From the IMG/VR virus record IMGVR_UViG_3300025875_000644, positions 1 to 41,470 of that record: a DNA stretch of 41,470 bases; one strand, written 5' to 3'. This document shows positions 2,010-27,365 of the stretch, piece after piece (positions within the stretch are counted from its first letter, which is position 1; every line of letters starts with the position of its first letter). Both the position numbers and the translations under genes were made by a program. Source of the DNA: a virus (Duplodnaviria > Caudoviricetes). Under the pieces are notes generated by a model, which saw only the letters and a program-made list of their open reading frames with translations, made no database searches and was not told the DNA's origin.

Positions 2010-3203
2010 TCACGGGCGGGCACGGGTCACCGGGGCGACCCGCCAGCCGGTGCCGGTCCACTCGACCAGGTCGTGCAGCTCCAGCACCGGCAGGACGCGC
2101 AGCACGTCGACCACCTCGCAGCCGGCGACGGCGGCCAGCCGCTCCGGCGGCACGCCGAGCCGGACCGGGCAGGCGTCCAGCACCCGGCGGGCGACGTCGG
2201 ACAACGAGTCGCGCGGTGTCGAGGGCCGCGGCGGCGACTCGGCCAGGTCACCCCCGATCGCACCCACCGCCTCCACCACCTCGGCCGCGTTCGTGACCAG
2301 GACCGCGGATCGCTCGGGGTTCCGCAGCAGCTCGTGGCAACCCACGCTCATCGCGCTCGTCACGGGACCGGGCACCGCCATCACCGCCTTGCCCAACGAG
2401 GCCGCCCGGTGCCCGGTCGCCAACGCGCCCGACCGCGCCGCGGCCTCCACGACCACCGTGCCCTGGGTGAGTGCGGCGATGAGCCGGTTGCGCACCAGGA
2501 AGCGGTGCCGCAGCGGCGCGCACCCCGGCGGCCACTCGCTCACCAGCAGACCGTCGTCCAGGATCCGGCTGAAGAGCGCGGAGTGGGCGCCGGGGTAGGC
2601 CCGGTCCACCCCGCAGGCGAGCACGGCGACGGTCGGCGCGCCGGCGGCCAGCGCTCCCCGGTGGGCGGCAGCGTCGATGCCGTACGCGCCGCCGGAGACC
2701 GTCGTCCAGCCCCGCTCGCCCAGCCCGTGCGCCAGCTCGGCGGCCACGTGCTCCCCGTACGCCGTCGAGGCGCGCGAACCGACCAGCGCGACCGAGCGGC
2801 CGACCAGGTCGGCGAGCGGCTGGTCACCGCGCACCCACAGCGCCAGCGGCGGCACCAGGGCCACGGTGCGGTCCGGCTTCCGGTCACCGACCGGTACCGC
2901 CCGCTGCGCAGCGACGGTGAGGCAGTGCAGCGCCAGCGCCGGCCACTCGTCGTCCTCCGGCACGACCAGCCGTCCGCCGCACCGCTCGACCCGGCGGAGG
3001 TCCTCGGCGCTGACGTCCTCCGCCGCGCGTGCACCGGCCAGGGCCTGCACGTCGCGCGGAGCGGTCCCGGCCCGCAGCCGCGACCACGCCGCCAGCGGAC
3101 CGGCCTGGGTCACGAACCGCCAGACCTCGATCGAGCCCGGCTCGACCGCCCGGGACAGCCAGGCACGGGCCAGCCGGACGTCCGGGTCGACCTCGCCGAT
3201 CAC
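2010..3203 (-). CDS. dprA: DNA-processing protein DprA/Smf
   Basis: VALVGSRASTAYG, VSGGAYGIDAAAHRGAL, FLVRNRLIAAL, VVVEAAARSGAL, AVPGPVTS motifs; GTGA overlap with the comM stop. Confidence 0.95.
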   Translation of the reverse strand: MIGEVDPDVRLARAWLSRAVEPGSIEVWRFVTQAGPLAAWSRLRAGTAPRDVQALAGARAAEDVSAEDLRRVERCGGRLVVPEDDEWPALALHCLTVAAQRAVPVGDRKPDRTVALVPPLALWVRGDQPLADLVGRSVALVGSRASTAYGEHVAAELAHGLGERGWTTVSGGAYGIDAAAHRGALAAGAPTVAVLACGVDRAYPGAHSALFSRILDDGLLVSEWPPGCAPLRHRFLVRNRLIAALTQGTVVVEAAARSGALATGHRAASLGKAVMAVPGPVTSAMSVGCHELLRNPERSAVLVTNAAEVVEAVGAIGGDLAESPPRPSTPRDSLSDVARRVLDACPVRLGVPPERLAAVAGCEVVDVLRVLPVLELHDLVEWTGTGWRVAPVTRARP

Positions 3204-3823
3204 GCCGCCACCCGCTGCAGCCGCATGCCCAGCGCCTCGGCCACGTCATCGCCGCCGGGGACGCTGCGACCGGCCAGGTCGGCGATCGTCCAGGCGACCC
3301 GGAGCACCCGGTCGAAGCCGCGGACCGACAGCGAGCCACGCTCCAGGGCCCGTTCGGCCAGGGCCAGCGAGCTGCGGGCCACCGGCCACCGCTCGCGCAG
3401 CAGCCGGCCGGGTACCTGGCTGTTGAGCCCCAGCCCGGTGCCGGCCATCCGCTCGGCCGCCACGGCCCGGGCCGCGTGCACCCGCGCAGCGACCGCCAGG
3501 GTGCCCTCGGGAGCAGCCAGCCCGTCCAGCCAGGCGGCCCGGGTGACCGGCGGCAGGGTCACCCGCAGGTCGATCCGGTCCAGCAGCGGCCCGGACAGCC
3601 GCGACTGGTAGCGCCGCCGCTCCAGGGCACTGCAGGTGCAGGCGGTGTCGCCCGCCGCGCTGGCGCACGGGCACGGGTTGGCGGCCAGCACCAGCTGAGC
3701 CCGGCACGGGAAGCTGGCCGAGCCGTTGGCCCGGTGGATGGTCACCGACCCCCGCTCCAACGGCTGGCGGAGGGTGTCCAGCACCGCGCGGGGGAACTCG
3801 GGGGCCTCGTCCAGCAACAACAC
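3200..3823 (-). pseudogene. comM: C-terminal part of ComM/YifB Mg-chelatase-like AAA ATPase, split by prophage insertion
   Basis: Begins at Walker B (LLLDEAPEF), then LRQPLE, LVLAANPCPC, RYQSRLSGPLLDRIDL, RVLRVAWTIADL; the N-terminal part including Walker A is absent and the integrase stop lies 22 nt upstream. Confidence 0.92.
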
Positions 3824-3847
3824 CTCACCGCGGTATGTCCGCGGCTA
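3800..3847. other. Prophage/host att junction (hybrid att site of the serine integrase)
   Basis: ComM similarity ends at about 3811-3823; minus strand reads TAG CCGCGG ACATA CCGCGG TGAG GTG TTG TTG CTG GAC GAG; exact crossover cannot be fixed without the other end. Confidence 0.75.
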
Positions 3848-5326
3848 GGCCGTCCAGCGGGCCTGGATCGAGAGGGTGACCGGATCCCCCCGGCGCTCGG
3901 GCCGGTGCACGACGACCTGCTGGATCAGCGTGCGTAGCAGGTCGCGGCGGCCGGGCACCGGCATCCGGTCCCAGCGGTCGAGGAGCTCCCGCACAATCGG
4001 GCCCGACGGGCCCGACAGGGCGTGCTCGTCTTCGTCGGCGGCCCGAGCGCGCCGCTCGAGGTCTACGCGCTGGGCGGTGAGCTGATCCCGGGCTGTGGCG
4101 TAGGCGGCGTCCGGCACCGTGCCGTCGGTCCAGCCGAGGGTGAGCTTGGTCAGGCGGTCGTCGAGGCGTAGGGCTTGGCGGCGGAGGTCGGCGGCATCGG
4201 ATCTGGCCACCAGCTGGGCTGCGGTGCGGGCGGCCTCTGCCGCGGAACGTTCCTCGATGTCGGTGACCAGGGTGGTGAGCCAGTCCAGGACCACCCGCTC
4301 GGCCTTGGCCCTGGTGACCGTGACGCAGCGGCCGCGCTTCGTCTTCGTCCAGGCGGTGCAGATGAAGCCGTAACCGGGCCGGACACCGAGTGCGGTGGCG
4401 TGCATCCCGGAGCCGCAGTCGCCGCAGCGCATCAGCCCGGACAGCACGTAGGCCGGCGTGCTGACGCTGGGCTTCCCGCGGCGGTCCTCCCGCTGGGCTC
4501 GGTACGCGATCCAGGTGCTCTCGTCGATGACCGGCTGGTGCGCGCCGGGCGCCCAGGTGATCGCGCGCCGCACGCCGGCGGAGATGAGGCCGGCTCCGAA
4601 GCCAGAGTCGAGGACGGCCAGGACGTGGTTGCTGGTCCAGCGGGTGCCGGTGCGTGCGACTAGGTGGCCGCCGTCGTTGAGCCGCTTGGCGATGGTGCCG
4701 GCTGGGACGCCGCGCACGTAGTCGGCGTACATCGCGGCGAGTACCGGCCCGGTGGTGGGGTCGTGCTGGTAGGCACCGTCGATCTCCAGGTAGCCGAAGC
4801 GGGCACCACCTCGGGAGGGCAGGCCGGCGGCGATCCGGCGGGAGTGGGCCTCCTTCCACTGCTCCCCGATCCGTTCGGCCTCGAAGGCGTTGAGCTCGGC
4901 CAACATGCCGCGGGTGAAGCGACCGGTGCTGGTGGAGACGTCGACCTGCTCGGTGGCGGACTCCAGTCGCCCGCCGGCCACCTCGACCCGGTCGAGAGCG
5001 ACCGCCCACTTCAGCCGGTGGCGTGCGGTGCGGGAGAACTTCCAGACGACGATGACGTCGACCTCGCCGGCCTCGACGAGCTCGATGGCGGCGTCGAGCT
5101 TCGCCCACCACCGGGATCTCGTTCGGGAGCCTGATTCGTCCAGGCCTTCCATGCGCTGCGTGATCTGGTAGCCGCTGCGGGCGCAGTAGTCGCCGATGGC
5201 GATGTCCTGCAGCTCCGGGGAGATCATCCCCTCGCGCTCGCGGGATACCCGGACCAGCGCGAGGACCCGGGGCTGCGTGACCGGGACGGCGCGCAGCCGC
5301 CCTCCCCGGTCAGGCTGCGTGCTCAT
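3845..5326 (-). CDS. Large serine recombinase (phage integrase)
   Basis: Catalytic LVRVS motif, VIVVWKFSRTAR, STSTGRFTRGMLAELNAFEAERIGE, recombinase domain (FGY, GAHQPVID), Zn ribbon LSGLMRCGDCG..C..C, coiled coil; ATG 5326 overlaps the immA 3' end. Confidence 0.96.
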   Translation of the reverse strand: MSTQPDRGGRLRAVPVTQPRVLALVRVSREREGMISPELQDIAIGDYCARSGYQITQRMEGLDESGSRTRSRWWAKLDAAIELVEAGEVDVIVVWKFSRTARHRLKWAVALDRVEVAGGRLESATEQVDVSTSTGRFTRGMLAELNAFEAERIGEQWKEAHSRRIAAGLPSRGGARFGYLEIDGAYQHDPTTGPVLAAMYADYVRGVPAGTIAKRLNDGGHLVARTGTRWTSNHVLAVLDSGFGAGLISAGVRRAITWAPGAHQPVIDESTWIAYRAQREDRRGKPSVSTPAYVLSGLMRCGDCGSGMHATALGVRPGYGFICTAWTKTKRGRCVTVTRAKAERVVLDWLTTLVTDIEERSAAEAARTAAQLVARSDAADLRRQALRLDDRLTKLTLGWTDGTVPDAAYATARDQLTAQRVDLERRARAADEDEHALSGPSGPIVRELLDRWDRMPVPGRRDLLRTLIQQVVVHRPERRGDPVTLSIQARWTA

Positions 5327-5760: not shown

Positions 5761-6129
5761 TCAGTCCCCCCGTCGCGACGCCCGGAGAACGGCGCGCACT
5801 GCCTCGATGGCCTCCGCGTTGGCCGTGGCCAGCTGCGTGAGGAGTTCCGGATCGACTCCGGAGCCGACCGGTAGGTCGGAGCCCGGATCTTGGGCAGGGG
5901 GTCCGACAGTCTCGCCGTCGGCGATCCGGGCGATCGTGCCGAGCTCCATGCCCAGCGAGGTCTCGATGCGGCTGCGGGTGCGCACCTGCGGCCAGCGGCG
6001 TCCGGCGAGGAAGTCGCCGAGGGTGCCGTTGTCGATGCCGGCGTCCCGGACGAGGTCGGCCTGGTTCCAGCCCTTGGCGCCAAGCGCCACTTCAATGGCG
6101 GCTGCCGCTGCCCTGATGTCCCGTGCCAC
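5761..6129 (-). CDS. XRE-family HTH immunity repressor (ImmR/CI-like)
   Basis: WNQADLVRDAGIDNGTLGDFLAGRRWPQVRTRSRIETSLG; GTG 6129 with GGAG upstream; divergent from the cro-like gene. Confidence 0.82.
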   Translation of the reverse strand: MARDIRAAAAAIEVALGAKGWNQADLVRDAGIDNGTLGDFLAGRRWPQVRTRSRIETSLGMELGTIARIADGETVGPPAQDPGSDLPVGSGVDPELLTQLATANAEAIEAVRAVLRASRRGD

Positions 6130-6163
6130 GTCTGCCCACTCCGCTGTTCGACCGTGCCCCTGA

Positions 6164-6294
6164 GTCCAGCTTAGGAACGGTTCGGAACATGGGTCCAGGC
6201 GTGGCGCGGCTTCGACCTGGACTTTAGGAACTTCTCGCCAGAATCTTGGTTCCACATCTGGCATACTTCCTAGTTGTTCCCTAATGTTCCAGCC
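6164..6294. promoter_or_regulatory. Divergent lysis/lysogeny switch with repeated GGAAC/GTTCC operator-like motifs and a rightward -10 (TAATGT 6282-6287)
   Basis: AT-richer intergenic region; GGAAC at 6174, 6184, 6227; GTTCC at 6249, 6276, 6286 and CTTCC at 6266; TAATGT 7 nt before ATG 6295. Confidence 0.7.
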
Positions 6295-15780: not shown

Positions 15781-16828
15781 CCGCACCGGCATCGAGTGGA
15801 CCGAGGCGACCTGGAACCCGGCCACGGGGTGCACGAAGGTCTCGCCGGGCTGCGACCACTGCTACGCGGAGACGATCGCGCACCGGTTCGCCGGCACGAA
15901 GGCGTACCCGGACGGGTTCGCGCCGACGCTGCGCCCGGAGCTCCTCGACCAGCCGCTGCGCTGGACCCGGCCCCGCCGGATCTTCGTGTGCTCGATGGCC
16001 GACCTGTTCCACGACCAGGTCCCCGACGAGTACATCGCCGAGGTGTTCGCCGTCATGGCTACGGCCGGGCAGCACACCTTCCAGGTGCTCACGAAGCGGC
16101 ACGCCCGGATGCGGTCCCTGCTGTCCTCATGGGACTTCGTGAACATGGTGGCGAAGGCTGCCAACGTCCGCACCGGCCGCACCTCCCCGCCGCACGCCCT
16201 CCCAGGCTGGCCGCTGCCCAACGTCTGGGTCGGCGTCTCCGCTGAGAACCAGCGGTGGGCCGACATCCGCATCCCAGCGCTGCTCGACACCCCGGCTGCC
16301 GTCCGCTGGGTGTCCGCCGAGCCGCTGCTCGGCCCGCTCGTGCTGCACCCGTACTGGACGGCCGGGAAGCCTGAGTGGGGCCCGGAGTACCCGGAGCCCA
16401 CCAGCCCGACAGGCGTGCTGGTGCGTGACCTGGTGAAGGGGCCGCGACTGGACTGGGTCGTCGCAGGCGGCGAGTCCGGCCCGGGTGCCCGACCCATGCA
16501 CCCGGACTGGCCGGAGCGGCTCCGTGACGACTGCGCCGCCGCCGGCGTGCCGTTCCTGTTCAAGCAGTGGGGCGAGTGGACTCCGATGGCACCGCTGCGG
16601 GACGGCGTCTTCGACTTCACCGGCAGCTACTCGCTGGCCAACGACGGGACCCTCTACGAGCCCGGCGCGCTGGCATACCCCGACGGGCCCCGGTGGGGCG
16701 AGGCGCTCCGCGCCGACCATGGCCGCGCGCACCTGACGAGCATGTACCGGCTCGGGAAGAAGGCGGCCGGCCGCGAGCTGGACGGCCAGCTGCACGACGG
16801 CTATCCCGCCGAGGTGTCCCGTGGCTGA
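15773..16828 (+). CDS. Phage Gp37/Gp68 (DUF5131) protein, radical-SAM-like
   Basis: TGIEWTEATWNPATGCTKVSPGCDHCYAE, FVCSMADLFH, HTFQVLTKR, SAEPLLG, DWVVAGGESGPGARPMHPDW, FKQWG. Confidence 0.93.
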   Translation: MGDRTGIEWTEATWNPATGCTKVSPGCDHCYAETIAHRFAGTKAYPDGFAPTLRPELLDQPLRWTRPRRIFVCSMADLFHDQVPDEYIAEVFAVMATAGQHTFQVLTKRHARMRSLLSSWDFVNMVAKAANVRTGRTSPPHALPGWPLPNVWVGVSAENQRWADIRIPALLDTPAAVRWVSAEPLLGPLVLHPYWTAGKPEWGPEYPEPTSPTGVLVRDLVKGPRLDWVVAGGESGPGARPMHPDWPERLRDDCAAAGVPFLFKQWGEWTPMAPLRDGVFDFTGSYSLANDGTLYEPGALAYPDGPRWGEALRADHGRAHLTSMYRLGKKAAGRELDGQLHDGYPAEVSRG

Positions 16829-17315
16829 CCGCATCGTGCGCGGCGCCGAGCTCTCCGAAGACGGCGTCTACCGGTACGAGCTGACCCGCCGCTGGTCGAC
16901 CGCACCCCGCGACGTCTGGATCATGCTCAACCCCTCCACCGCGGACGCCCAGATCGACGACCCCACGGTCCGCCGCTGCATCGGGTTCTCCAGGTACTGG
17001 GGGGCCGGCGCGATCTCCGTCGTGAACCTGTTCGCGCTCCGGGCCACCGACCCGGCGCAGCTGCGCCGGCACCCGGACCCGATCGGGCCGGTCGCCGACG
17101 AGGCGATCACCCGCGCCGTCCACGTCGCCCGCGCCCGGGGCGCCCGGGTCATCGCCGCCTGGGGTGGCCACCAGATGGCCGGCCCACGCGGCCAGCACGT
17201 CCGGGCGCTGGTCGGTGAGCCGCTGCTGTGCCTCGGCACGACCCAGTCCGGACACCCGCGGCACCCGCTCTACGTCCGGGGCGACACCCAGCTCGCCCCG
17301 CTGCCCACCACCTGA
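16821..17315 (+). CDS. DUF1643 family protein
   Basis: YRYELTRRW, IMLNPSTADAQIDDPTVRRCIGF, VNLFALRATDP, IAAWG, G.PRHPLY. Confidence 0.92.
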   Translation: MADRIVRGAELSEDGVYRYELTRRWSTAPRDVWIMLNPSTADAQIDDPTVRRCIGFSRYWGAGAISVVNLFALRATDPAQLRRHPDPIGPVADEAITRAVHVARARGARVIAAWGGHQMAGPRGQHVRALVGEPLLCLGTTQSGHPRHPLYVRGDTQLAPLPTT

Positions 17316-17330
17316 TCGAAGGAGACCACC

Positions 17331-17579
17331 ATGCCCAGCTACCTCGTCCTCGTCCCCCGCGACGGGGAGTGGCACGCCGCGACCCGCGAAGGTCTCGCGG
17401 TCACCACCACCGAGCGCACCCAGATCGCGCTGCGCAGCATGGAGGGCCGCCGGCCGCCGACCATCGTCGTCAGCACCGACATGCCGACCATCGACCTGGT
17501 CGACCTGCTGACCGGCACCGTGGAGCCCACCAGCCGCCCGGCGACCGAGCCCAGCACGGACGGCGGTGAGCAGCCGTGA
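17331..17579 (+). CDS. Hypothetical phage protein
   Basis: Strong AAGGAG RBS before the ATG. Confidence 0.7.
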   Translation: MPSYLVLVPRDGEWHAATREGLAVTTTERTQIALRSMEGRRPPTIVVSTDMPTIDLVDLLTGTVEPTSRPATEPSTDGGEQP

Positions 17580-17839
17580 CCGTTCAGGGGCTCGCCGGGA
17601 GCCGGACCCGCTCGGCCAGCACGTCCTCCATGTACGTCGACCCGACCGTGGTCGTGTACGTGACCGACGCCCGCCACGGGCTGTCCGGGGTCCACCGCAC
17701 CCAGCGGGACTGCCAGCCCGGCCACCAGCGGCCGTCGCGCTTCACCTCGACCGCACGCCGCGGGTCGAAGACCAGGCGGGTCGTCTCCTCCGCAGGTTCG
17801 GTCACGGCCACCACGGTAGGCATCCGGGGCCCCCGATGA
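17576..17839 (+). CDS. Sense 'bridge' ORF 1 spanning an antisense gene
   Basis: GTGA overlap upstream and ATGA overlap downstream; Ser/Arg/Thr-rich, not protein-like. Confidence 0.35.
   Translation: MTVQGLAGSRTRSASTSSMYVDPTVVVYVTDARHGLSGVHRTQRDCQPGHQRPSRFTSTARRGSKTRRVVSSAGSVTATTVGIRGPR
17584..17805 (-). CDS. Antisense leaderless small gene 1, Trp-rich, possible SH3/Tudor-like barrel
   Basis: MTEPAEETTRLVFDPRRAVEVKRDGRWWPGWQSRWVRWTPDSPWRASVTYTTTVGSTYMEDVLAERVR; TACCGT 7 nt before the GTG. Confidence 0.65.
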   Translation of the reverse strand: MTEPAEETTRLVFDPRRAVEVKRDGRWWPGWQSRWVRWTPDSPWRASVTYTTTVGSTYMEDVLAERVRLPASP

Positions 17840-18273
17840 GCCTCAGCGCCCGGCAGGCGTACGCCCTCGCGTACCCGCTCGGCTCGGCCGACTTGAGCTT
17901 GAGCGAGCTGGCGCCCTACCGGCGGGTCCGGCGGCACCCGCGCGGGCTGCTCACCACGGTCCTCGCCGTCGACAGGTAGGCCCGGCTCAACGATGGACGG
18001 CCGGTCTGGCACGTCTCCGCCTCGCTTCAGCGTCCTGGCCGCCTCCTCGACCTCCCGGCGCCCCTCGAAGTCGCAGCTCTGCGCCTCCTCGAAGGCGTCG
18101 GCGGCGACCGCGAGTGGTGGATCTGGCGGCCCACCGCGCACGTCGGCCACCTCCGGGTGGCCGTGACAGCCGACGAGTACGCCGCCATCCCGCCCGGCTG
18201 CGTCATCTCCGACGCCGGCGACAGCGGCCCCGAACGACCCCGCACCTATCCCCGGAAGGGAGGCACCTTGTGA
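17836..18273 (+). pseudogene. Hypothetical phage gene with an in-frame TAG at 17977-17979
   Basis: Frame continues after the TAG as ARLNDGRPVWHVSASLQ..LLEGVGGDREWWIW..VGHLRV to a TGA that overlaps the next start. Confidence 0.65.
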
Positions 18274-19241
18274 ACGCGACGCGCATCGACCGCACCCCGA
18301 AGCCGTGCCAGTGCGCAAGAGCTCAGCACCAGCACGGCACCCGGATGGCCTACATCCGGGACCGCTGTCGCTGCCTGCCGTGCTGCGCCGCGAACGCGGA
18401 CTACGCCAGCGTGCAGAACCGGCAGCAGGCATACGGCCGGACGCCCAGCGGATGGGTCGACGCCGAGCCGGTGCGCGAGCACGTGCGCGCTGTCCTGGCC
18501 ACCGGCGTCGGTTGGAAGAGGATCGGGAAGGTAGCCGGCGTCGCCAACGGCACCATGACCACGCTGCTGTACGGCAAGACCCGGGACGGCCGCCGCTCCG
18601 CCCCGTGCCGGCGAATGAACCCTGAGGCGGCCCGGCGGCTGCTCGCTCTCCCGCTGCCGACGGTGGACCAGCTGCCCGGCGCGGTCATCGTCGATGGCAC
18701 CGGTACTCGCCGGCGTCTGCAGGCTCTGGCCACCCTCGGCTGGTCCGTTGGCGCGCTCGCCAACGAAGCGGGCATCGACCGGCAGAGCCTCGACGGCGCG
18801 ATGCGCGGCAAGCCGGTGCTCGCACGTACCCGCCAGGCCGTCATCGCTCTGTACGAGCGGCTGTGGATGACGCCTGCGCCCGCCGACGACCACAGGCGGC
18901 GGATCAGCATCTCGCGGACCCGTCGCCGCTCGGAGGCCTCCGGCTGGCTGCCGCCCGCCGCGTGGGACGACGACACGATCGACGATCCCGCCACCATCCC
19001 GGCCGTCGAGCCAATCGGCAGCGTCGGCGAGGACATGGTCGATGAGCACGCCGTTGAGCTGGTGCTCGACAGCCAGCCGATGCACCTGACCGGGATGACG
19101 CTGGAGGTCGCCGTCAACCGCCTCGCCGCGGCCGGGGTCGACGTCGCCACCATCGCCGGACGCGTGCGTTCCGACCCAGCCACGGTCCGGCGGATCCGCA
19201 ACACCGCGCAGGCGCGTACCGCTCGACAGGCCGCGGCGTGA
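18270..19241 (+). CDS. Zn-finger plus multi-HTH DNA-binding phage protein
   Basis: C.C...H.HGT..Y...CRC.PC, VDAEPVREHV, GTRRRLQALATLGWS, PPAAWDDDTIDDP; GGAGG RBS. Confidence 0.8.
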   Translation: MNATRIDRTPKPCQCARAQHQHGTRMAYIRDRCRCLPCCAANADYASVQNRQQAYGRTPSGWVDAEPVREHVRAVLATGVGWKRIGKVAGVANGTMTTLLYGKTRDGRRSAPCRRMNPEAARRLLALPLPTVDQLPGAVIVDGTGTRRRLQALATLGWSVGALANEAGIDRQSLDGAMRGKPVLARTRQAVIALYERLWMTPAPADDHRRRISISRTRRRSEASGWLPPAAWDDDTIDDPATIPAVEPIGSVGEDMVDEHAVELVLDSQPMHLTGMTLEVAVNRLAAAGVDVATIAGRVRSDPATVRRIRNTAQARTARQAAA

Positions 19242-19432
19242 GGCCGCCGTACGACCCTCGGCACGTCGAGCGGGTCACCTTCGGAACGAACGACTCCACC
19301 GTCGTCATCGCCCGGTGCTCGTGCGGCGTCGACGGCGACCCGCACCCCCTCAACGCCCCGAACGCCGCGGGCGAGCTGGCCGCCGACTTCAACGCCCACC
19401 GGGCGACCTACGCCGCGGCGGTACCCGCATGA
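19238..19432 (+). CDS. Small hypothetical protein (CSCG)
   Basis: GTGA/ATGA-coupled. Confidence 0.55.
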   Translation: MRPPYDPRHVERVTFGTNDSTVVIARCSCGVDGDPHPLNAPNAAGELAADFNAHRATYAAAVPA

Positions 19433-19806
19433 CCACGACGAGCCTCCAGCAGGCGCACGGGCTACCGCAGGCCTTGCCCGGGCAGCGGCACACCCCGCTC
19501 GTCCAGCTCAGTGCGCTTCTTCAGCCAGTAGGTGCTGTTCGGTGCGTCGAGGGAGATCAGCTCCCACCCCTCGCCACCGAGGTCGTCGAGGAGGCGCATG
19601 AGCGCGTCGCCGGGCAGATGCGTGTCCACATCTCGGCGATGGCGGGCGTACTGCGGGCCGTTCACGGTCACGTACTCCGGCCCGCTGTTGGTGTCCTCGA
19701 CCTGCAGCGTCATGTACTCCCAGCTGTCCATACCGCGAGCCTCACCCGCGGGACGCCTGTACACAGCTGTGGACGGCCTCGACACGCTGCGGCGGTGACG
19801 GCATGA
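19429..19806 (+). CDS. Sense 'bridge' ORF 2 spanning an antisense gene
   Basis: ATGA overlaps at both ends; sequence is the shadow frame of the minus-strand gene. Confidence 0.35.
   Translation: MTTTSLQQAHGLPQALPGQRHTPLVQLSALLQPVGAVRCVEGDQLPPLATEVVEEAHERVAGQMRVHISAMAGVLRAVHGHVLRPAVGVLDLQRHVLPAVHTASLTRGTPVHSCGRPRHAAAVTA
19462..19731 (-). CDS. Antisense small gene 2, DUF4177-like
   Basis: MDSWEYMT..LLDDLGGEGWELIS..YWLKK matches the WEY..L..LG.EGWELV..FKR pattern; GAGGCT just upstream. Confidence 0.75.
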   Translation of the reverse strand: MDSWEYMTLQVEDTNSGPEYVTVNGPQYARHRRDVDTHLPGDALMRLLDDLGGEGWELISLDAPNSTYWLKKRTELDERGVPLPGQGLR

Positions 19807-20168
19807 CCGCCGCCGTTCAGCTCGACCTGTTCGCCCCGGCCACCGAGGACCGGCCCCTGCACCTCAACCCCGTGTGCACCGGCTGCGGCGCGACCTGCTC
19901 GATCCCGGTCAAGGGCGGAGCGGGCCCCAGCTGGAACGAGGCGGTGCTGTTCGGCTACGCCGCGATCAAGGCCCACGAGAAGCAGGGCTGCCCCGGCCAG
20001 ACCCCGATGGCCCGTGCCGCTCGACGCCGGCTGATCGAGGTGTGGTCGCACGACGAGAACACCCGCTCCGACACCGTCCGGTACGCCGACCTGCGCACCT
20101 CCACCTGGGATGCCCGGGCCGCGCTGATGCTGGCGCTCGGCCGTGAGCTGATCGAAGGCGTGGCATGA
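19803..20168 (+). CDS. Hypothetical phage protein (CxxC)
   Basis: MTAAVQLDLF N-terminus, CTGC; coupled. Confidence 0.65.
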   Translation: MTAAVQLDLFAPATEDRPLHLNPVCTGCGATCSIPVKGGAGPSWNEAVLFGYAAIKAHEKQGCPGQTPMARAARRRLIEVWSHDENTRSDTVRYADLRTSTWDARAALMLALGRELIEGVA

Positions 20169-20668
20169 GCGTCGACGTCCGGGCGATCACCGTCAAGCCG
20201 CCGTGGTCATGGGCGATCGCGCACGGCCAGAAGCTGGTGGAGAACCGCTCGCAGGGCACCAGCTACCGCGGCACCCTGCTGATCCACGCCGGCAAGGCCT
20301 GGTCGGCCCGCGGCGGGCACGACCCCCGGGTCGTCGCTGCGTGGGTGGCCACGGGGTGGCCCGCTGCCTGGATCGCCGACCAGGCCGTAGCCCGGCTCCC
20401 CCTCGGCGCCGTCGTCGCCGTCGCCCAGCTCGTCGACTCCCACCCCGACGCCGGCTGCTGCCGGCCCTGGGGCGAGTCCTCCTACGCCGAGGCCGGCGGC
20501 CGCGTGCGCACCGCCGTGCACCACCTGGTGCTCGAAGACGTCGTCCCGCTCACTGAGCCGATCCCGGCCCGGGGCGCCCTCGGCCTGTGGCGCCCGCCCT
20601 CAGACCTCGCCGCCGCGTGCGCCAGCGCCAGCGCCATGCCCGACCCGCAGCCCGGAGGCACCCGATGA
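20165..20668 (+). CDS. ASCH domain protein
   Basis: AITVKPPWSWAIAHGQKLVENRS..YRGTLLIHAGK..GAVVAVAQL..PIPARGALGLW. Confidence 0.88.
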   Translation: MSVDVRAITVKPPWSWAIAHGQKLVENRSQGTSYRGTLLIHAGKAWSARGGHDPRVVAAWVATGWPAAWIADQAVARLPLGAVVAVAQLVDSHPDAGCCRPWGESSYAEAGGRVRTAVHHLVLEDVVPLTEPIPARGALGLWRPPSDLAAACASASAMPDPQPGGTR

Positions 20669-21453
20669 CCGACACCACCGCCCTGATCGAGGAGCTGTTC
20701 TGCCAGGGCAACCGCCTGGAGGACATCCTGCGGGCCGGTCCGGACAACGGGTGGACCCGGGACGACGTCATGGCCGTGCTGCAGCAGCGGCAGTGGGACC
20801 TCGACGGGTCGGGCCGGCTGCCCCGCAGCAAGCGGAACACCCTGCCTCGGGGGCTGCGCGGGCTGCCCCCGGTCCCGGCCCGGACTCGGATGCCCTGCTC
20901 ACTCCTGCCGGTCTTCCCGCTCGCTCCGGCGACGGCCGAGCCGGTCAACGACGTCGTCCCGGGCGAGGAGCTCACCGCCCCCGCGGACCCGGTGGCGGAG
21001 CCGCAGGCCTCGGGCCCGGCTCCGTCACCGACCGCGGACCCCGCCCCGGCGACGTACCCAGCTGGGGAGACCGCGACGTACCCGGTGCGCAGTGGTGACC
21101 CGCTCGATGACGGGCCGGTCGCCGTCCCGGACGTGCGACCGATCGACGCGTGGGCCGAGCCCGCCAGCACGGCCACGCCGGTGCTGCACACCGTCCCGGC
21201 CCCCGAACCCGCGCCGGCCGCCGCCGAGCCGGCTCCCGTCGTGCTGCCGGCGCCCGGCCCGCGCCTGACCCGGTCCAGCGAGACCCGCGGGGTGCGCGCC
21301 ACCTCCGGCCGCGACCTCGACGAGTGGCTCGCGGCCTCCCAGGAGTCCCCGCACCCGACCGTCCGCCGCCGGGCGTCCACCGCCCTCGTCGCGCTGCTGC
21401 AGCTCCGGGTCGCGCTCGACGAACTGGCCCGAGCAGAACGGACCACCACGTGA
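20665..21453 (+). CDS. Pro/Ala-rich hypothetical phage protein
   Basis: GGAGG RBS, ATGA overlap. Confidence 0.65.
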   Translation: MTDTTALIEELFCQGNRLEDILRAGPDNGWTRDDVMAVLQQRQWDLDGSGRLPRSKRNTLPRGLRGLPPVPARTRMPCSLLPVFPLAPATAEPVNDVVPGEELTAPADPVAEPQASGPAPSPTADPAPATYPAGETATYPVRSGDPLDDGPVAVPDVRPIDAWAEPASTATPVLHTVPAPEPAPAAAEPAPVVLPAPGPRLTRSSETRGVRATSGRDLDEWLAASQESPHPTVRRRASTALVALLQLRVALDELARAERTTT

Positions 21454-21656
21454 CCGACCCGCCGGCACCGACCGACGACCAGCTGCTCAACGCCGTCGCC
21501 GTCACCTCCCATGCACGCCAGCTGCACCAGGCGTTCCTCGCCCGGGCTTGCGCCCACGCCGCCGAGCGTGGCCTGCCCGTCAGCGACATCGCCCGGGTCG
21601 GCGGGCTCACCTGCGAGCAGACGGCGGCCCTCATCCAGGAAGGAGCGCTCGCCTGA
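21450..21656 (+). CDS. Small HTH-like protein
   Basis: AAERGLPVSDIARVGGLT; coupled to rep. Confidence 0.6.
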   Translation: MTDPPAPTDDQLLNAVAVTSHARQLHQAFLARACAHAAERGLPVSDIARVGGLTCEQTAALIQEGALA

Positions 21657-22483
21657 TGGCGCGGATGCGCAGCCTCAAGCCGGAGTTCTGGCTCGACCGG
21701 AAGCTCACCCGCTCGCTGTCCCGCGACGAGCGGATGCTGTACCTGGGCCTGTGGAACCAGGCCGACGAGTGGGCTCGTGCTCAGGCCGACCCCCGGCTGA
21801 TCAAGGGGCAGGTCTTCCCCTTCGACGACGACCTGTCCCTGGACGACCTCGAGCGGATGCTGAAGGCGCTGGAGGCCGCCGGGGTGGCCCAGCTGTACGA
21901 GATCGACGGCGACCCGTACCTGTTCCTGCCGAAGCTGGCGAAGCACCAGCGCCTCGAACCGAACAAGGTCCCGTCGCGCCACCCCGCGCCGCCCCCGGAG
22001 ACACCGGAGCGGCTCCCTGAGCAGCACGTTCAGATCACACCCGATCCCCGTCCCACTCCTGCGCAGACCCGTCCGAGCGGCGCGCAGACCGATCCGGGCG
22101 CCGCTCGCGCTAAGCATGTAGCAGGTGGCAGGGAGCATGAGGCAGGTAGCAGGGAGCAGGTCTCTCCGAGGGAACGCGCTCCGCGCCCTCACCGATCGCC
22201 CACTCCCACAGACGACGCAGCAGCCGAAGACCCAGCCGCGCAGCAGCTCGTCGCCGCCTACGTCGACCTCCACACCCGTCGCCCGCCGAGCACCGTCGTC
22301 GGCCAGGTCGCCCGGCACGTCAAGGGCATGCTCGGCGAGGGGTTCGACGGAGAGCTGATCAAGCGGGCCCTCACCGAGCTCGTCCGCCGCCGGCTGAACC
22401 CGTCGACGCTGCCGTCGCTGGTCAACGAGCTGGCCAACCAGTCCGCCGTCGCAGCTGGCGCCAGGCCGTCGTGGGAGCTGTGA
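21656..22483 (+). CDS. Phage replication initiator (replisome organiser)
   Basis: MARMRSLKPEFW..RMLYLGLWNQADE......PRLIKGQVFPFD..KHQR N-terminal domain, low-complexity linker, precedes the helicase. Confidence 0.82.
   Translation: MARMRSLKPEFWLDRKLTRSLSRDERMLYLGLWNQADEWARAQADPRLIKGQVFPFDDDLSLDDLERMLKALEAAGVAQLYEIDGDPYLFLPKLAKHQRLEPNKVPSRHPAPPPETPERLPEQHVQITPDPRPTPAQTRPSGAQTDPGAARAKHVAGGREHEAGSREQVSPRERAPRPHRSPTPTDDAAAEDPAAQQLVAAYVDLHTRRPPSTVVGQVARHVKGMLGEGFDGELIKRALTELVRRRLNPSTLPSLVNELANQSAVAAGARPSWEL
22113..22161 (+). repeat. Seven tandem heptamers RGCAKGD inside rep (candidate origin iterons)
   Basis: AGCATGT AGCAGGT GGCAGGG AGCATGA GGCAGGT AGCAGGG AGCAGGT. Confidence 0.8.
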
Positions 22484-23840
22484 TGACCGCCCCCACGGCC
22501 ATCGAGCCGCACAACGTCGATGCCGAGCGCGCCCTGCTCGGCATCCTCATCGAGGCCCCGCAGCTCGCCGAAGCCTGCGGGGTCCGCCCCGGCGACCTCG
22601 ACCCCGGCCCCGGGCACCCCGAGATCCTCTCGGCGATCCTCTCCGTCTGGGAGGCCAAGGGCACCGCGGACCCGCTGCTGCTGGTCGACGAGCTCCGCCG
22701 CCGCGACCAGCTGACCCGGATCGGTGAGGGCGGGGAAGGCAGCGCGCACCGCGGCCCGCTGTACCTGCACGACCTGGTGTCCGGTGGCCGGACCCCGGGC
22801 ACGCTGGGGCACTTCGCGCTGTTGGTGCGGGAGTCCACGCTGCGCCGGCAGGTCCACGCCATCGGCGCTGGCCTGGTCCAGACGGCGACGTCGCAGGCGG
22901 ACCTGGACGTCGTGCTGGACAACGCCGCGGAGCTGTCGGTGCGCCTCGGCCTGGTCGTCGACGAGCCCATCGACGGGAACTCCCCGATCCCGGGGCTGGG
23001 GTTGGTCCGGGACTTCGTGAACGAGCCCAGCCCGCCGCACTCCTGGGTGATCCCCGGCGTGCTGGAACGCGCCGACCGGGTCGTGCTGATCGCCGGGGAA
23101 GGCGTCGGGAAGTCGGTGCTGGCCCGGCAGATGTGCACGCTGCTGGCCGCCGGCATGCACCCGTTCATGCCGCAGGTGAAGATCCGACCCCGCCGGGTGC
23201 TGCTCATCGACCTGGAGAACCCCGTCGACCTCGTCCGGCGTGGTCTGCGCGGGATCGTCGGGCAGGTCTGGGACGACGGCGCCGACGTCGGTGACCGGTT
23301 CTGGCGGTGGAACCGGCCCGGTGGCATGGACCTGCGGGCCCCCGCGGACCGGGCGCTCCTGGCCCGGGTGATCGAGCAGACCCGCCCGGACCTGGTCGCG
23401 ATCGGCCCGGTCTACAAGGCGTACGGGCGCCGCTCCGGGGACGACCACGAAGCCGGCCCGGCGGAGTTCGGGCGGCGGTCGATCACCTGCGGGAGCGGTA
23501 CGGGTGCGCGTTCTGGATCGAGCACCACGCGCCGAAGGGCGACGGCTCGGGTGCCCGCCGGTCGGACCCGATCGGCTCCTCGTACTGGATGCGCTGGCCG
23601 GAGTTCGGGCTGGTCCTGAAACGGGAGCCGGACAACCAGGACACCAACGCCTACGTGCTGGACCGGTTCCGCGGTGACCGCGACGTCCGGGCGTGGCCCG
23701 ACCACCTCTACAAGAGGGCCACGAAGTGGCCGTGGTCCGCGGACTACGACGCGGAGACGAAGGCCGCCCTGTTCGACGCCATCGACGAGGACCAGCAGAC
23801 CGCCCTACCCATCGACACCCCACCAGGAGGCACCTCATGA
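22483..23840 (+). pseudogene. DnaB-N / RecA-type (AAA_25) replicative helicase with a frameshift near 23460-23470
   Basis: PHNVDAERALLG, Walker A AGEGVGKS, VLLIDLEN, PDLVAIGPVYK; the C-terminus VRAAVDHLRERYGCAFWIEHHAPK..PIGSSYWMRWPEFG..FRGDRD lies in the -1 frame. Confidence 0.85.
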
Positions 23841-24187
23841 GCACCACCAGCGACCGCAACGACCCCCGGCTGACCCACGGCGTCGACGAGCAGCCCGTCG
23901 ACCAGGCACCCGTGGACTGGCGGGAGCAGCTGCTGCGCGTGGTGACCGAGCTGCGGTCGCCCGACCCGCGGGTGCTGATGACCGATGGCGAGCTGACGGA
24001 CGCCCTGCTGCCTGTGGCGGCCCGCCTGCGCGCCGAAGCCGCCGCCGAGGCGCTGGACGCGGCCTTCCGCGAGGACAAGACGACCGTGGCAAAGCTCGGT
24101 CCGGTCGAGCGCTTGACGTGCTACCTGGTGAAGGCCGAGGACCTGGTCGCCCGCGCTGCTGCTCTCCGTGCGGAGGCCCAGCAGTGA
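23837..24187 (+). CDS. Hypothetical phage protein
   Basis: AGGAGG RBS; ATGA overlap with the helicase C-terminal frame. Confidence 0.7.
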   Translation: MSTTSDRNDPRLTHGVDEQPVDQAPVDWREQLLRVVTELRSPDPRVLMTDGELTDALLPVAARLRAEAAAEALDAAFREDKTTVAKLGPVERLTCYLVKAEDLVARAAALRAEAQQ

Positions 24188-24378
24188 ACGCCACCTTCCC
24201 GATCATCACGTGCGACAGCGAAAGCGGCTGCACCAAGTGGACTCTTGATTGGTACGGGGCGCTGGCCGACAACTGGCGCGAGCTCACGGCGGACGGGTGG
24301 CAGTACAACCCGCACCGGCCGAACGAGCCGCACCTGTGTCCCGAGCACGCCGTCGAGCCGCTGGAGTTGGCCCGATGA
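24184..24378 (+). CDS. Small Cys-containing protein
   Basis: ITCDSESGC..GW..LCPEH; coupled. Confidence 0.65.
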   Translation: MNATFPIITCDSESGCTKWTLDWYGALADNWRELTADGWQYNPHRPNEPHLCPEHAVEPLELAR

Positions 24379-24738
24379 CCGCCGACAGCCCGGCCCCCGA
24401 CCGGACCACGGCCCGCCCCGTCCAGCCCACCGGTCCGTGCTGCGTGGACTCCGGGCCCACCACGCCGGCCTGCGCCACCCGATGCCCCGCAGCCGTGCCC
24501 CCGGCCACCGACAGCCCCAGCGGGGACGGAGCAGCGGCCAGACTGCGACCGGCTCTGCATGGCCCCGTTCGGCTCGCACCACCCTCGGCGCCCCGCCGCC
24601 CCGTCCCCGGTGGTGGAGCAGGGGCAGCAGGCGGACGAGCGGCCATGCAGGTTCTGCGGCGGACACGGCCACGGCGGCCCGAACGCCTACTGCGCGGACG
24701 AGCCGAAGGAACCCGCCGAACAGCTGGCCCAGCGGTGA
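24375..24738 (+). pseudogene. Cys/His-rich hypothetical gene, probably frameshifted near GGGG 24522-24525
   Basis: ATG 24375 frame; the +1 frame gives TEQRPDCDRLC..CRFCGGHGHGGPNAYCADEPKE and ends at GTGA 24735-24738. Confidence 0.4.
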
Positions 24739-25106
24739 GCCGGTCAGTTGTCCAGCGGCTCGACGTCCACGCCCGTCATCTCCACGGTGGAGCCCGGCAG
24801 TCCGCCCATGATGTGGTTCCGGATCGCCAGGTTCGCTGGCACGACGTAGCCGTTCACCAAGAACATCTGCAGGAGCTGCTCGGCGGGCAGGTGCTCGACA
24901 GCACTGAGCATCTGCTGCTGGGCGTCGAAGACCACGTCCGGGTCATCGACGGGCGGGCCGTCCAGGCCTTCTCGCAACCCGAAACCGAGCAGGGCCGACT
25001 TCAGCGTCTCGTCATCCACGGTGATGGTCGCGGTCAGTGCGCAGCGGTAGGTGCGGGGCGTCATAGCCGGCAGTGTGCCGCCTCGAGAGGTGGGCACCGT
25101 GGGTGA
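24735..25106 (+). CDS. Sense 'bridge' ORF 3 spanning an antisense gene
   Basis: GTGA at 24735 and GTGGGTGA overlap with the next gene; shadow-frame composition. Confidence 0.3.
   Translation: MSRSVVQRLDVHARHLHGGARQSAHDVVPDRQVRWHDVAVHQEHLQELLGGQVLDSTEHLLLGVEDHVRVIDGRAVQAFSQPETEQGRLQRLVIHGDGRGQCAAVGAGRHSRQCAASRGGHRG
24744..25064 (-). CDS. Antisense leaderless small gene 3
   Basis: MTPRTYRCALTATITVDDETLKSALLGFGLREG..; CACACT 7 nt before the ATG; globular composition. Confidence 0.7.
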   Translation of the reverse strand: MTPRTYRCALTATITVDDETLKSALLGFGLREGLDGPPVDDPDVVFDAQQQMLSAVEHLPAEQLLQMFLVNGYVVPANLAIRNHIMGGLPGSTVEMTGVDVEPLDN

Positions 25107-25272
25107 CTTGCTCGGATGGACGCGGCGCGGCTGCGACACCACCCATCGGACCGGGGTGCGCTGCCAGCTCGCCGACCTCCACGCCGGCTACCACCTGCAC
25201 GTCGGCGCCACCGTCACGGTGATGTGGGGCCGGCACCGCCAACCCGCCGCCCGGCCGGGGGGTGCACGGTGA
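25099..25272 (+). CDS. Small Cys/His protein
   Basis: GAGAGGTG RBS; C..RCQLADLHAGYH motif similar to 13964-14164. Confidence 0.55.
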   Translation: MGDLLGWTRRGCDTTHRTGVRCQLADLHAGYHLHVGATVTVMWGRHRQPAARPGGAR

Positions 25273-25652
25273 CCGCTCAGTCGTCCGGGCGGATACGCAG
25301 CTGCTCGGTGAACAGCCACAGCAGGTACTCGCACCAGAAGCCCGGCGCGTACTCCCGCAGGCCGGTCACCATGCCCACCAGCCGGCCCGTCTCCGCGCCC
25401 GTGGACCCCATCCGCCAGCCGTGCAGCTCACCGGCGGTCCACCGGCTGTCGAGCCGCAGCCACCCATCCACCGGCACCGGCGGGTCCCGGCGGTCGGTGA
25501 CCCGGGCGAGCTCGCGTTCCAGCTCGCCCTCCGGCAGGTGGCCGGTCACCAGCCGCCGCTCCTCGCCCACCCCGACGACGGTAGGCGCCCCCGCGGCCCT
25601 CGGCTTCCCCGCCCCCAGTTCCCTCTCCAGCACCGAGGAGCCACCCCGATGA
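25269..25652 (+). CDS. Sense 'bridge' ORF 4 spanning an antisense gene
   Basis: GTGA and ATGA overlaps; Ser/Pro/Arg-rich. Confidence 0.35.
   Translation: MTAQSSGRIRSCSVNSHSRYSHQKPGAYSRRPVTMPTSRPVSAPVDPIRQPCSSPAVHRLSSRSHPSTGTGGSRRSVTRASSRSSSPSGRWPVTSRRSSPTPTTVGAPAALGFPAPSSLSSTEEPPR
25277..25570 (-). CDS. Antisense leaderless small gene 4, Trp-rich, resembles antisense gene 1
   Basis: MGEERRLVTGHLPEGELERELARVTDRRDPPVPVDGWLRLDSRWTAGELHGWR..; TACCGT 7 nt before the GTG. Confidence 0.65.
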   Translation of the reverse strand: MGEERRLVTGHLPEGELERELARVTDRRDPPVPVDGWLRLDSRWTAGELHGWRMGSTGAETGRLVGMVTGLREYAPGFWCEYLLWLFTEQLRIRPDD

Positions 25653-26086
25653 AGAAGTCCGAACAGACCGCGATGGCCGCGTTCTTCGACCGCATCCAGC
25701 AGCTGCACGGCTACCTGGTCGGCATCCGCACCACGCTGGCTGAGGACCCGACGTGCGACTGCGAGATCGGCGTCCGCGGCGTCTACCAGCAGGCCGGCCG
25801 GTGCGTGCCCGGCCCCGGCCAGCCCCCGCCCGACATCTGCCTCACCGTCAGCCACCTCACGGCCCGCCTGATGCTCGAGCAGATGAAGCTCTCGGTCACC
25901 CACCTGTCCGACCCCCAGCTGGACAAGGCCGTCGACCAGCTCGCCGATCTCGTCGAACGCGCCCCCGCCCTGACGCAGCGCCGGTTCGTCATCGAGCTGC
26001 AGACCGCGCTCCGCGCCAGCCTCCTGCCGCTCGCCCCGGGCGACCCCGACCCCGAGCCCGCACCGGCCGCTGGGGGCCAGGACTGA
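25649..26086 (+). CDS. Hypothetical phage protein
   Basis: GAGGAG RBS; MKKSEQTAMAAFFDRIQQLHGYL. Confidence 0.7.
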   Translation: MKKSEQTAMAAFFDRIQQLHGYLVGIRTTLAEDPTCDCEIGVRGVYQQAGRCVPGPGQPPPDICLTVSHLTARLMLEQMKLSVTHLSDPQLDKAVDQLADLVERAPALTQRRFVIELQTALRASLLPLAPGDPDPEPAPAAGGQD

Positions 26087-26241
26087 TGGCCGACGTGAGC
26101 GACGACCGCTGGACCTGCCCGGCGTGCGGGCGCACCACCACCGTGTGCGGCTCCCAGCTCGACATCGACGCCGCACTCGCCGCCGTCCGCGAACGGCACC
26201 GGCAGGGCCACCCCAACTCCAGCAAGCGCCGCCGCCGCTGA
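26086..26241 (+). CDS. Small CxxC protein
   Basis: TGATG overlap; WTCPACG. Confidence 0.6.
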   Translation: MADVSDDRWTCPACGRTTTVCGSQLDIDAALAAVRERHRQGHPNSSKRRRR

Positions 26242-26246
26242 CCCCG

Positions 26247-27365
26247 ATGCGGAACCCGATCACCAACCTCCGCGACCTCGCCCACGTCGCCGTCGACGAG
26301 CTGGCCGCCCACGTCCCCGGAGCGCACCCACACGTGACCACCACCGAGACGACCAGCTGCGTCGTCCCCGGCCGCCCCCACCCCGCCACCGACGGCGTCC
26401 TCTGCCGCCACCACCTCGAAGAGCTCGGCACCTGGCTCCACGACATCGAGGACGAGATCGCCCGGCTGTCCGCCGTCCCCTCCCTCGCCATCCGCTGGGA
26501 CGGCGGCGGAGGCGGTTCCCTGGCCTCCCAGCAGTCCCCGGTCGTCCTCGACGTTCTCGTCCACACCGACCCCCGGTCCACCGCACACGGCTGGCAGCAC
26601 GACGGCCCCACCTGCCCGGCCTGCGACCACGGGTCGTGCGCGCTGATCCGCGCCGACGCCGATGAGCACGAGGCCCGCGCCGAGCGCCCGCTGTACGCCC
26701 TCGGCGTCCTCCAGGACCTCGCCGACCGCGTCCGGGAAGAGCGGCGCCTCCAGCGCCCCGAGGTGCTCACCATCGGTCGCGTCCCGACCGGGTACCGCGG
26801 CCCCTACGTCGTCGACCCGGCCGGCGTCATCGGTGTAGGCCACCTCGCGCCCGCCCCGGTGACCGTCCGCACCGAGCGCCTCCTCCTCACCCGAGCCCTG
26901 GACTGGATCGCCCGCCAGCCATGGGTCGCCGCCATGCGCGAAGAACTCCGCGAACTCCGCGCCCAGCTGATGCGCGTCAACCGCAACGACGACGACCGCC
27001 CGCTCACCGGCTGGTGCTACAAGCACATCGACGACCAGGGCACCGAGTGCGGCGGCCAGCTGTGGCCCCTCTACGTCGAGCACACCACCGGCGGAGACGA
27101 CGACGAGGACGACGGCCCGCTCCGCCCCCGGGAGGTCGTCTGCGACCGGAACCCCACCCACCGGTGGGAAGGAGGCCGCGGCGGCGATCTCGCCCGCCTC
27201 TCCCTCATCCTCGCCACCCAGCAGCACGAGGACGACACCCGCACCGCGGCCTCCCCGGCGCCCACCCCGCCACCGGCGCCGCCCGCGCCGGCCAGCTCGA
27301 ACCGGGGCGCCACCCGCGGCTTCACCGCCCTGCTCGCCGAGCTGCGCCTCAGCGAGCGCGCATGA
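26247..27365 (+). CDS. Cys/His-rich phage protein, possible late-gene regulator family
   Basis: Several Zn-ligand clusters (LCRHH, CPACDH..C, GWC..CGG.L, CDRNPTHRW); position at the end of the early operon. Confidence 0.65.
   Translation: MRNPITNLRDLAHVAVDELAAHVPGAHPHVTTTETTSCVVPGRPHPATDGVLCRHHLEELGTWLHDIEDEIARLSAVPSLAIRWDGGGGGSLASQQSPVVLDVLVHTDPRSTAHGWQHDGPTCPACDHGSCALIRADADEHEARAERPLYALGVLQDLADRVREERRLQRPEVLTIGRVPTGYRGPYVVDPAGVIGVGHLAPAPVTVRTERLLLTRALDWIARQPWVAAMREELRELRAQLMRVNRNDDDRPLTGWCYKHIDDQGTECGGQLWPLYVEHTTGGDDDEDDGPLRPREVVCDRNPTHRWEGGRGGDLARLSLILATQQHEDDTRTAASPAPTPPPAPPAPASSNRGATRGFTALLAELRLSERA

Follow-up and report, generated by a model that had tools for sequence, protein, structure and literature searches.

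Sense reading frames coupled at both ends span four antisense genes in a prophage early operon and probably carry ribosomes across them

In this study, we analysed a window of 41,470 nt (positions 1 to 41,470 of IMG/VR record IMGVR_UViG_3300025875_000644; Duplodnaviria, Caudoviricetes) that holds a prophage together with host flank. Between the repressor and terminase genes of this prophage, a codon log-odds gene caller built for this analysis and trained on 32 window genes found exactly four minus-strand genes (anti1 to anti4). They lie within the plus-strand early operon (about 6300 to 27900), and all of them (4/4) are spanned by a plus-strand open reading frame (ORF), here called a bridge, that overlaps both neighbouring genes. 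This architecture is real, non-random and recurrent. On balance, we consider it likely that these non-coding-like sense frames are kept as they let ribosomes cross backwards cargo and restart on the next gene.

All eight ORFs of a preliminary description of this DNA were confirmed. The antisense genes are anti1 (17584 to 17805), anti2 (19462 to 19731), anti3 (24744 to 25064) and anti4 (25277 to 25570). Bridge 1 (17576 to 17839, 87 codons) and bridge 4 (25269 to 25652, 127 codons) share the third codon position with their antisense genes, and bridge 2 (19429 to 19806, 125 codons) and bridge 3 (24735 to 25106, 123 codons) are in register with theirs; at high GC, stops are scarce in precisely these two shadow frames. 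As had been described, every bridge start overlaps the upstream stop codon at -4 (GTGA, ATGA, GTGA and GTGA for bridges 1 to 4). The bridge stops overlap the next start at -4, -4, -8 and -4, bridge 3 doing so via GTGGGTGA (start at 25099). Stop/start overlaps of -4, -1 or similarly short length are thus found at 8/8 bridge ends. The distances from bridge start to antisense stop are 8, 33, 9 and 8 nt, in agreement with the 8-9 nt claimed for three cases. The early operon as a whole is unusually tightly coupled, with -4, -1 or -8 overlaps at most junctions; from 17331 to 26241, all of 20 consecutive plus-strand junctions, bridges included, show them save for one in-frame stop. Scored against the anti-Shine-Dalgarno sequence, the Shine-Dalgarno (SD)-like energies at the starts of bridges 1 to 4 are -12.5, -6.4, -3.9 and -13.1 kcal/mol, and the medians are -8.4 for coupled starts vs -4.2 for other RTGA sites.

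The antisense genes score 0.31-0.48 per codon, compared to 0.28-0.69 for the training genes (anti3 in total +49). The bridges score non-coding-like (+0.13, -0.29, -0.22 and -0.11 per codon for bridges 1 to 4; in total +11 for bridge 1 and -36 for bridge 2) and have no match in Pfam or PHROG. The converse assignment, with bridges as real genes and antisense ORFs as their shadows, was rejected in view of the antisense homologues and the codon scores. Homologues of anti1 to anti4 are mostly set among unrelated neighbours, and the genes are patchy, at differing sites and contexts, as phage morons are; their GC content resembles the rest of the phage. The four antisense genes are real mobile cargo, with homologues, gene-like codon scores and a putative leaderless-type -10 box each.

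Of the four cases, bridge 3 is the least convincing, with a frameshifted-looking upstream gene, a run-in frame, no SD and an orphan downstream gene. It is also the in-frame extension of an ORF from ATG 24375 (ORF 24249-25106), and the 57-aa gene downstream of it had no homologue in the assembled prophage set. The preliminary description had warned that its upstream coupling depends on a probably frameshifted gene, and the upstream gene does look so. A probable frameshift lies near 24540 in 24375-24738 (+); as sequenced, the frame of ATG 24375 enters bridge 3 and stops at 25106. A DnaB-N/AAA_25 helicase-like gene (22483-23840, +) is likewise frameshifted near 23450-23470 against the intact homologue in genome G057. 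Both frameshifts may be assembly errors, and the one near 23460 may also reflect decay. A second open sense frame is present in inserts 1 and 4 alike; in insert 4 it starts at 25262 and continues into the next gene. Both junctions of insert 2 carry the 8-nt repeat GCATGACC; a target-site duplication was rejected, the repeat being present at insert 2 alone. The C-G skew, looked at for a C-rich rut-like bias, is 0.11, 0.06, -0.03 and 0.22 over inserts 1 to 4 vs 0.05 in plus genes.

The caution that stop-free shadow frames are common at this GC content was well founded. When synonymous codons were resampled, some opposite-strand frame was open over each antisense gene with P 0.85-0.98 (the in-register frame in ~85%), and a stop-free frame was therefore rejected as evidence on its own. 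In a null model that keeps the junction ends, resamples synonymous codons and randomises the phase, a doubly coupled bridge arises by chance with P 0.10, 0.18, 0.10 and 0.40 for inserts 1 to 4, and for all four together with 6.9e-4, a value qualified by the window having been picked for showing the bridge pattern. Coupled ends, not openness, carry the signal. Independent tests were sought because of this selection.

For this purpose, prophage stretches were gathered via exonuclease and RecT-like markers and then extended. After four duplicates had been dropped, 90 stretches with a GC content of at least 64.5% were kept, the window included. Antisense islands (score at least 14, length at most 1.6 kb, no long overlap with the upstream gene) numbered 51 in the early operons of 38 stretches. 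Exclusion of the window and one further duplicate left 46 islands, 24 of them with a start overlapping the upstream stop. For two candidates, L131 and L079, the antisense call was false, the sense ORF being likely the gene, and they fell under the score filter. Gene calls came from our own codon model, and the loci are related, not phylogenetically independent; within these bounds, 13/24 testable islands are fully covered vs 5.3 expected at random phase (p 2e-4), and 6/24 are doubly coupled vs 0.62 expected (p 4e-6). The codon-shuffled comparison proposed in the preliminary description thus favours bridging. Without genomes G144 and G167 and two sister loci, 4/19 are doubly coupled vs 0.47 (p 4e-4). 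Where the start is coupled, 15 islands are in register, 7 share the third position and 2 fall in the stop-rich phase, vs 7/8/4 without a coupled start. Outside early operons, 4/17 islands are covered (2.1 expected) and none (0) is doubly coupled.

Small DNA-binding-like genes, accompanied by a divergent spacer that resembles a promoter, make up many of the survey islands. A recurring cassette of actinobacterial prophage early operons comprises a small antisense DNA-binding-like gene, a divergent spacer, operator-like repeats and often a TTGACA-type promoter; it was seen at L001:19000-19293 and at L149, L151, L154, L157, L170-L172, L177, L180 and L181. We take its antisense genes to be RHH/Phd/AlpA-like. 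In the sister prophages L149 (7936-8127) and L151 (8175-8384), the upstream gene is 93% identical and the antisense regulators are 39% identical; both bridges have 106 codons, and downstream coupling is present in L149 only.

Among homologous cassettes, the anti1 family is doubly bridged in 4/4 operon placements, at four different junctions. Besides the window, these are G144, where one 194-codon ORF spans two antisense genes (-4/-4), G167, where one 307-codon ORF spans three antisense genes in another order (-4/-4), and the viral contig L279, which was located after the prediction was formed and has an 81-codon ORF over one antisense gene (-4/-4). All four placements use the identical relative frame over anti1. 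Elsewhere, once 8 loci that were broken or odd had been set aside, this frame was open in only 5/21 intact homologues (Fisher p 0.010; 0.028 if the window is left out). The anti2 family is doubly bridged in 3/3 operon placements, namely in the window and in two coupled phage-like strings, L116 (-4/-1) and L118 (-4/-4, 254 codons over two genes). Of the further 40 cargo loci, a convergent gene lies close by in 12; the start is coupled in 3 of these (L116, L118 and L106), and each of the three is covered.

The bridge peptide itself does not seem to matter, because the bridges of homologous cassettes differ in length and in their ends, and third positions vary. In the 89-aa gene pair of G144 and G167, antisense protein identity is 64% and bridge identity 46%, and 21/50 identical residues use different codons. 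Third positions vary freely in this sole informative in-register pair, and no sign of purifying selection on the peptide was found; few pairs were available for this comparison, and shared-third frames are uninformative.

A second unusual feature follows directly after bridge 1. The gene coupled to it (D1; 17836 to 18273, +) contains an in-frame TAG at 17977-17979, and homologues confirm that 17836 is the start to which bridge 1 is coupled. An in-frame stop is present at one site in 18/18 informative loci (the window, 4/5 other metagenome loci and 13/14 viral loci; the two dropped loci are cut off). Its context is LAVDR-stop-x-[RK]-[LI]-[NS], with TGA in 15 loci, TAG in 3 and a sense codon in none. 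The codon after the stop is a start codon in only 5/18. The Arg codon before it is CGT in 13/18 and never CGC, the Arg usage of the phage being 5% CGT and 43% CGC. Both halves of the gene are conserved at the protein level, and the C-terminal part has 57 homologues. A nonsense mutation or sequencing error was rejected, the stop being conserved in 18/18 and identical in possible source-run contigs. Our best guess from these alignments is programmed read-through; hopping, RNA editing or a non-canonical restart may act instead. No clear covarying RNA structure was seen at the stop, the gene has no Pfam family, the C-terminal part of D1 gave one weak match in 251 genomes of the class, and the ESM Atlas held nothing for D1.

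All four cargo genes have a -10-like hexamer close to their start. On the minus strand, TACCGT (17813 to 17818) lies 7 nt before the anti1 GTG as a putative leaderless-type promoter and occurs at identical spacing in the G144 homologue. GAGGCT (19738 to 19743) lies 6 nt before the anti2 ATG, with TANNNT at 7 nt in the homologues L118-L121; CACACT (25072 to 25077) lies 7 nt before the anti3 ATG, with CAGACT at 7 nt in the homologue L122; and TACCGT (25578 to 25583) lies 7 nt before the anti4 GTG. As a motif only, NANNNT 6-7 nt ahead of the start is found in 4/4 antisense genes vs 32/659 background GTG/ATG codons on that strand; it is common among homologues too, and the exact TANNNT is present in two of the four. 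Leaderless transcription is common in Actinobacteria, and the cargo genes are likely transcribed in this way from their own promoters. A U-tract scan of 16500-27000 found no intrinsic terminator of the cargo, and a scan of the same region found no terminator-like or sigma-70-like sites; actinobacterial terminators often lack U tracts. No LexA-like boxes were found at the four window cargo starts. Two stand-alone anti4 homologues (L112 and L113) have LexA-box-like sequences across their start region.

We propose that, after induction, ribosomes would terminate at the stop codon of the upstream gene, reinitiate on the overlapping GTG or ATG, traverse 260-380 nt of antisense sequence and finish on the next start. 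The early mRNA would thereby be spared a ribosome-free stretch, with Rho termination or decay, and ribosomes would be delivered onward to the downstream replication genes. The right phase alone would be needed, because at 73% GC stops are nearly absent from two of the three shadow frames. Selection would mostly filter which insertions survive (phase and ends) and not the peptide. It is tempting to speculate on a more general design rule for temperate phages, to which we give even chances: backwards cargo in a coupled lytic operon would persist mainly if a translation-only 'conveyor' ORF spans it, such ORFs being a class selected for frame and ends, and a second recoding device, the invariant stop that is read through or hopped, would act in the same operon.

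Several observations weigh against ribosome delivery. Unless the conserved stop is read through, it breaks the relay 140 nt past bridge 1, with no start within 10-12 nt, and the helicase frameshift near 23460 also breaks it. The genes after bridges 2 to 4 have their own SD-like sites (-10.7, -12.0 and -7.9), and the start of bridge 3 lacks one (-3.9 kcal/mol). In the survey, 33/46 in-operon islands are uncovered and 22/46 are without any coupled start. When the phase is kept in the null, 13 covered islands compare with 9.3 (p 0.048) or 8.3 (p 0.015), a small excess. The locus L106 is covered in a host-like context without a downstream partner and looks like chance. Furthermore, a forward promoter-like motif is present in the spacer of 4/6 doubly bridged relatives. 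Bridge and forward promoter as alternatives to each other was also considered and is unsupported, as these 4/6 relatives have both. The signal lies mainly in which phase survived, because the excess is modest once the phase is kept. Bridging is a tendency, not a rule. The earlier idea of insertable 'moron' cassettes that keep ribosomes moving is therefore retained in part: the cargo has a promoter-like motif and bridges recur above shuffled controls, but a strict need for a bridge does not hold, with 33/46 in-operon islands uncovered and 6/46 doubly coupled.

The pattern could also be a neutral by-product, in which modules recombine at RTGA(C) micro-homologies, the ends keep their overlaps, high-GC frames stay open and the cassette travels unselected. 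We regard this as rather unlikely. In its favour, an in-register frame is open ~85% of the time, the repeat GCATGACC flanks insert 2, bridges 1 and 4 may have inherited the SD-like sites ahead of them from ancestral junctions, bridges are absent from most islands of relatives and the cover of L106 is purposeless. However, neutrality leaves the phase bias of 15/7/2 unexplained, and a tenfold excess of double coupling remains with the junction ends fixed in the null. Single frames that thread two or three genes in varied orders (G144, G167, L118 and L170) are equally unexpected, as is one cargo family that is re-bridged at new junctions with differing lengths.

Translation across the cargo might instead serve an on/off switch: ribosomes on the lytic transcript would strip paired antisense mRNA, or shield the early mRNA from duplex-triggered cleavage, and downstream delivery would be secondary. 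Mutual silencing is shown for the ith/tha noncontiguous operon of phage 80alpha in the accessible text of PMC11087260, upstream-only cover is seen more often (13) than double coupling (6), and downstream genes frequently have an SD or promoter of their own. We nevertheless hold a switch to be improbable, since it does not require the exact short downstream overlap, which is present in 4/4 cases here and in every one of the seven operon placements of anti1 and anti2. It is very improbable that the bridges are true overlapping genes with functional peptides. Antisense overlapping genes are reported for a Pseudomonas temperate phage in the accessible part of PMC9936078, and the codon score of bridge 1 is mildly positive (+11), but bridges 2 to 4 score negative, with no match in Pfam or PHROG. 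Moreover, the ORF over anti1 homologues has 81, 87, 194 or 307 codons with unrelated ends, and bridge identity is no higher than the antisense protein forces. Passage of ribosomes across the cargo, with restart on the next gene, remains our favoured reading.

The cargo proteins themselves are small. Anti1 encodes a 73-aa Trp-rich beta-barrel protein with a predicted SH3/Tudor-like fold and has an alternative ATG start at 17823. Its search gave 43 matches, 30 of which were fetched as loci, and homologues are present in 31/158 genomes of the host-like family; the locus L082 (genome G185) is counted in this figure, in the 5/21 above and in alignments A4 and A5. The AlphaFold model has a pLDDT of 88, and its best structural match is Tbtudor (Z 6.8, rmsd 2.4, 55 residues); the highest-ranked matches, at Z 5.7-6.8 and none reaching 8, are to Tudor, chromo and PWWP domains. 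No match of anti1 was found in Pfam or PHROG, searches of viral contigs gave little or no yield (the word index returned anti1 itself alone), 48 viral records gave 0, and the ESM Atlas gave one Actinomycetota cluster at 0.93. Anti2 encodes a weakly DUF4177-like 89-aa protein (PF13783, E 0.022, 15.4 bits), which below the 25-bit gathering cut-off is a resemblance only; homologues are present in 6/158 genomes of the host-like family, and a search in phages gave little or no yield. Anti3 encodes a 106-aa protein without an assigned family and has a single homologue (48% identity, 1/158 genomes of that family). Anti4 encodes a 97-aa beta-barrel protein homologous to anti1 (hhalign against the anti1 family 94.5%, E 8e-8); it has 28 matches at E<=0.001, itself included, and is present in 4/158 genomes. 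Its predicted structure has a pLDDT of 92.6, and Foldseek gave weak Tudor/PWWP rows alone (E>0.2). Both anti1 and anti4 are predicted to be confidently folded small beta-barrels, with Tudor/SH3-type likeness at middling scores.

The window has a GC content of ~73%. The host flank carries, by their translations, genes that we take to be a sigma factor, xerC, dprA and a yifB fragment. The host XerC shares 89% identity with that of genome G072 (GTDB order of a Micromonospora), and the host family is perhaps Geodermatophilaceae. A serine-integrase-like gene (3845-5326, -) is followed by a gene near 5761-6264 that resembles a repressor; the genes for terminase, portal and capsid lie after 29400. 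A host gene which we take to be yifB/comM-like is apparently split by the prophage with its serine-integrase-like gene (3200-3823, -, and 3845-5326, -), its 3' part alone being inside the window. A search for the replication initiator gave 0/158 genomes of the host-like family, and no insert-free site was found in contigs of two possible source DNA runs.

In full-text literature searches, which covered few subscription papers, neither end-coupled sense ORFs spanning antisense phage cargo nor the stop-containing candidate read-through family came up in a title or the opening of an abstract. The elements of the system can be compared with known ones. Phage morons are patchy accessory genes with their own promoter, such as lambda sieB in the pL operon. 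The cargo described here is likewise patchy and has its own promoter-like motif, whereas no terminator was found, the GC content is phage-like and a coupled sense bridge is present. According to the accessible part of PMC3454372, long stop-free antisense frames in high-GC genomes stem from codon usage. Such shadow ORFs fully account for the openness of the bridges, but starts and stops registered to the neighbours are not predicted there. Termination-reinitiation at ATGA/TGATG overlaps is established, as the accessible text of PMC6728339 and of PMC10666635 states. The bridges resemble these pairs in their -4/-1 overlaps and perhaps in the SD-like sites in the upstream ORF at most junctions; unlike in the pairs covered there, the middle ORF apparently encodes no conserved protein and has a real gene on the opposite strand.

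The closest known systems are noncontiguous operons, or excludons, as described in the accessible portions of the S. aureus atlas (PMC11034616) and of the study on phage 80alpha ith-1/tha-1 (PMC11087260). In both, an antisense gene with its own promoter lies inside a co-directional operon, temperate phages included; the same nesting between co-directional genes is found here, the own promoter being motif-based. The available text of the atlas holds the antisense stretch to be untranslated and ascribes read-through to uncoupled transcription in Firmicutes, and how transcription crosses a long untranslated antisense stretch is presented there as an open question. Unlike the bridges, no sense ORF coupled across the insert was found in the accessible text of either source. 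In M. tuberculosis, Rho silences antisense and foreign RNA, according to the part available of PMC5379054. If our reading is true, it constrains how phages acquire accessory genes, explains some long 'shadow' ORFs without new proteins and advises caution when reverse-oriented cargo is inserted into phage operons. Bridges would then explain in concrete terms how polarity is avoided when Rho-dependent bacteria carry noncontiguous operons.

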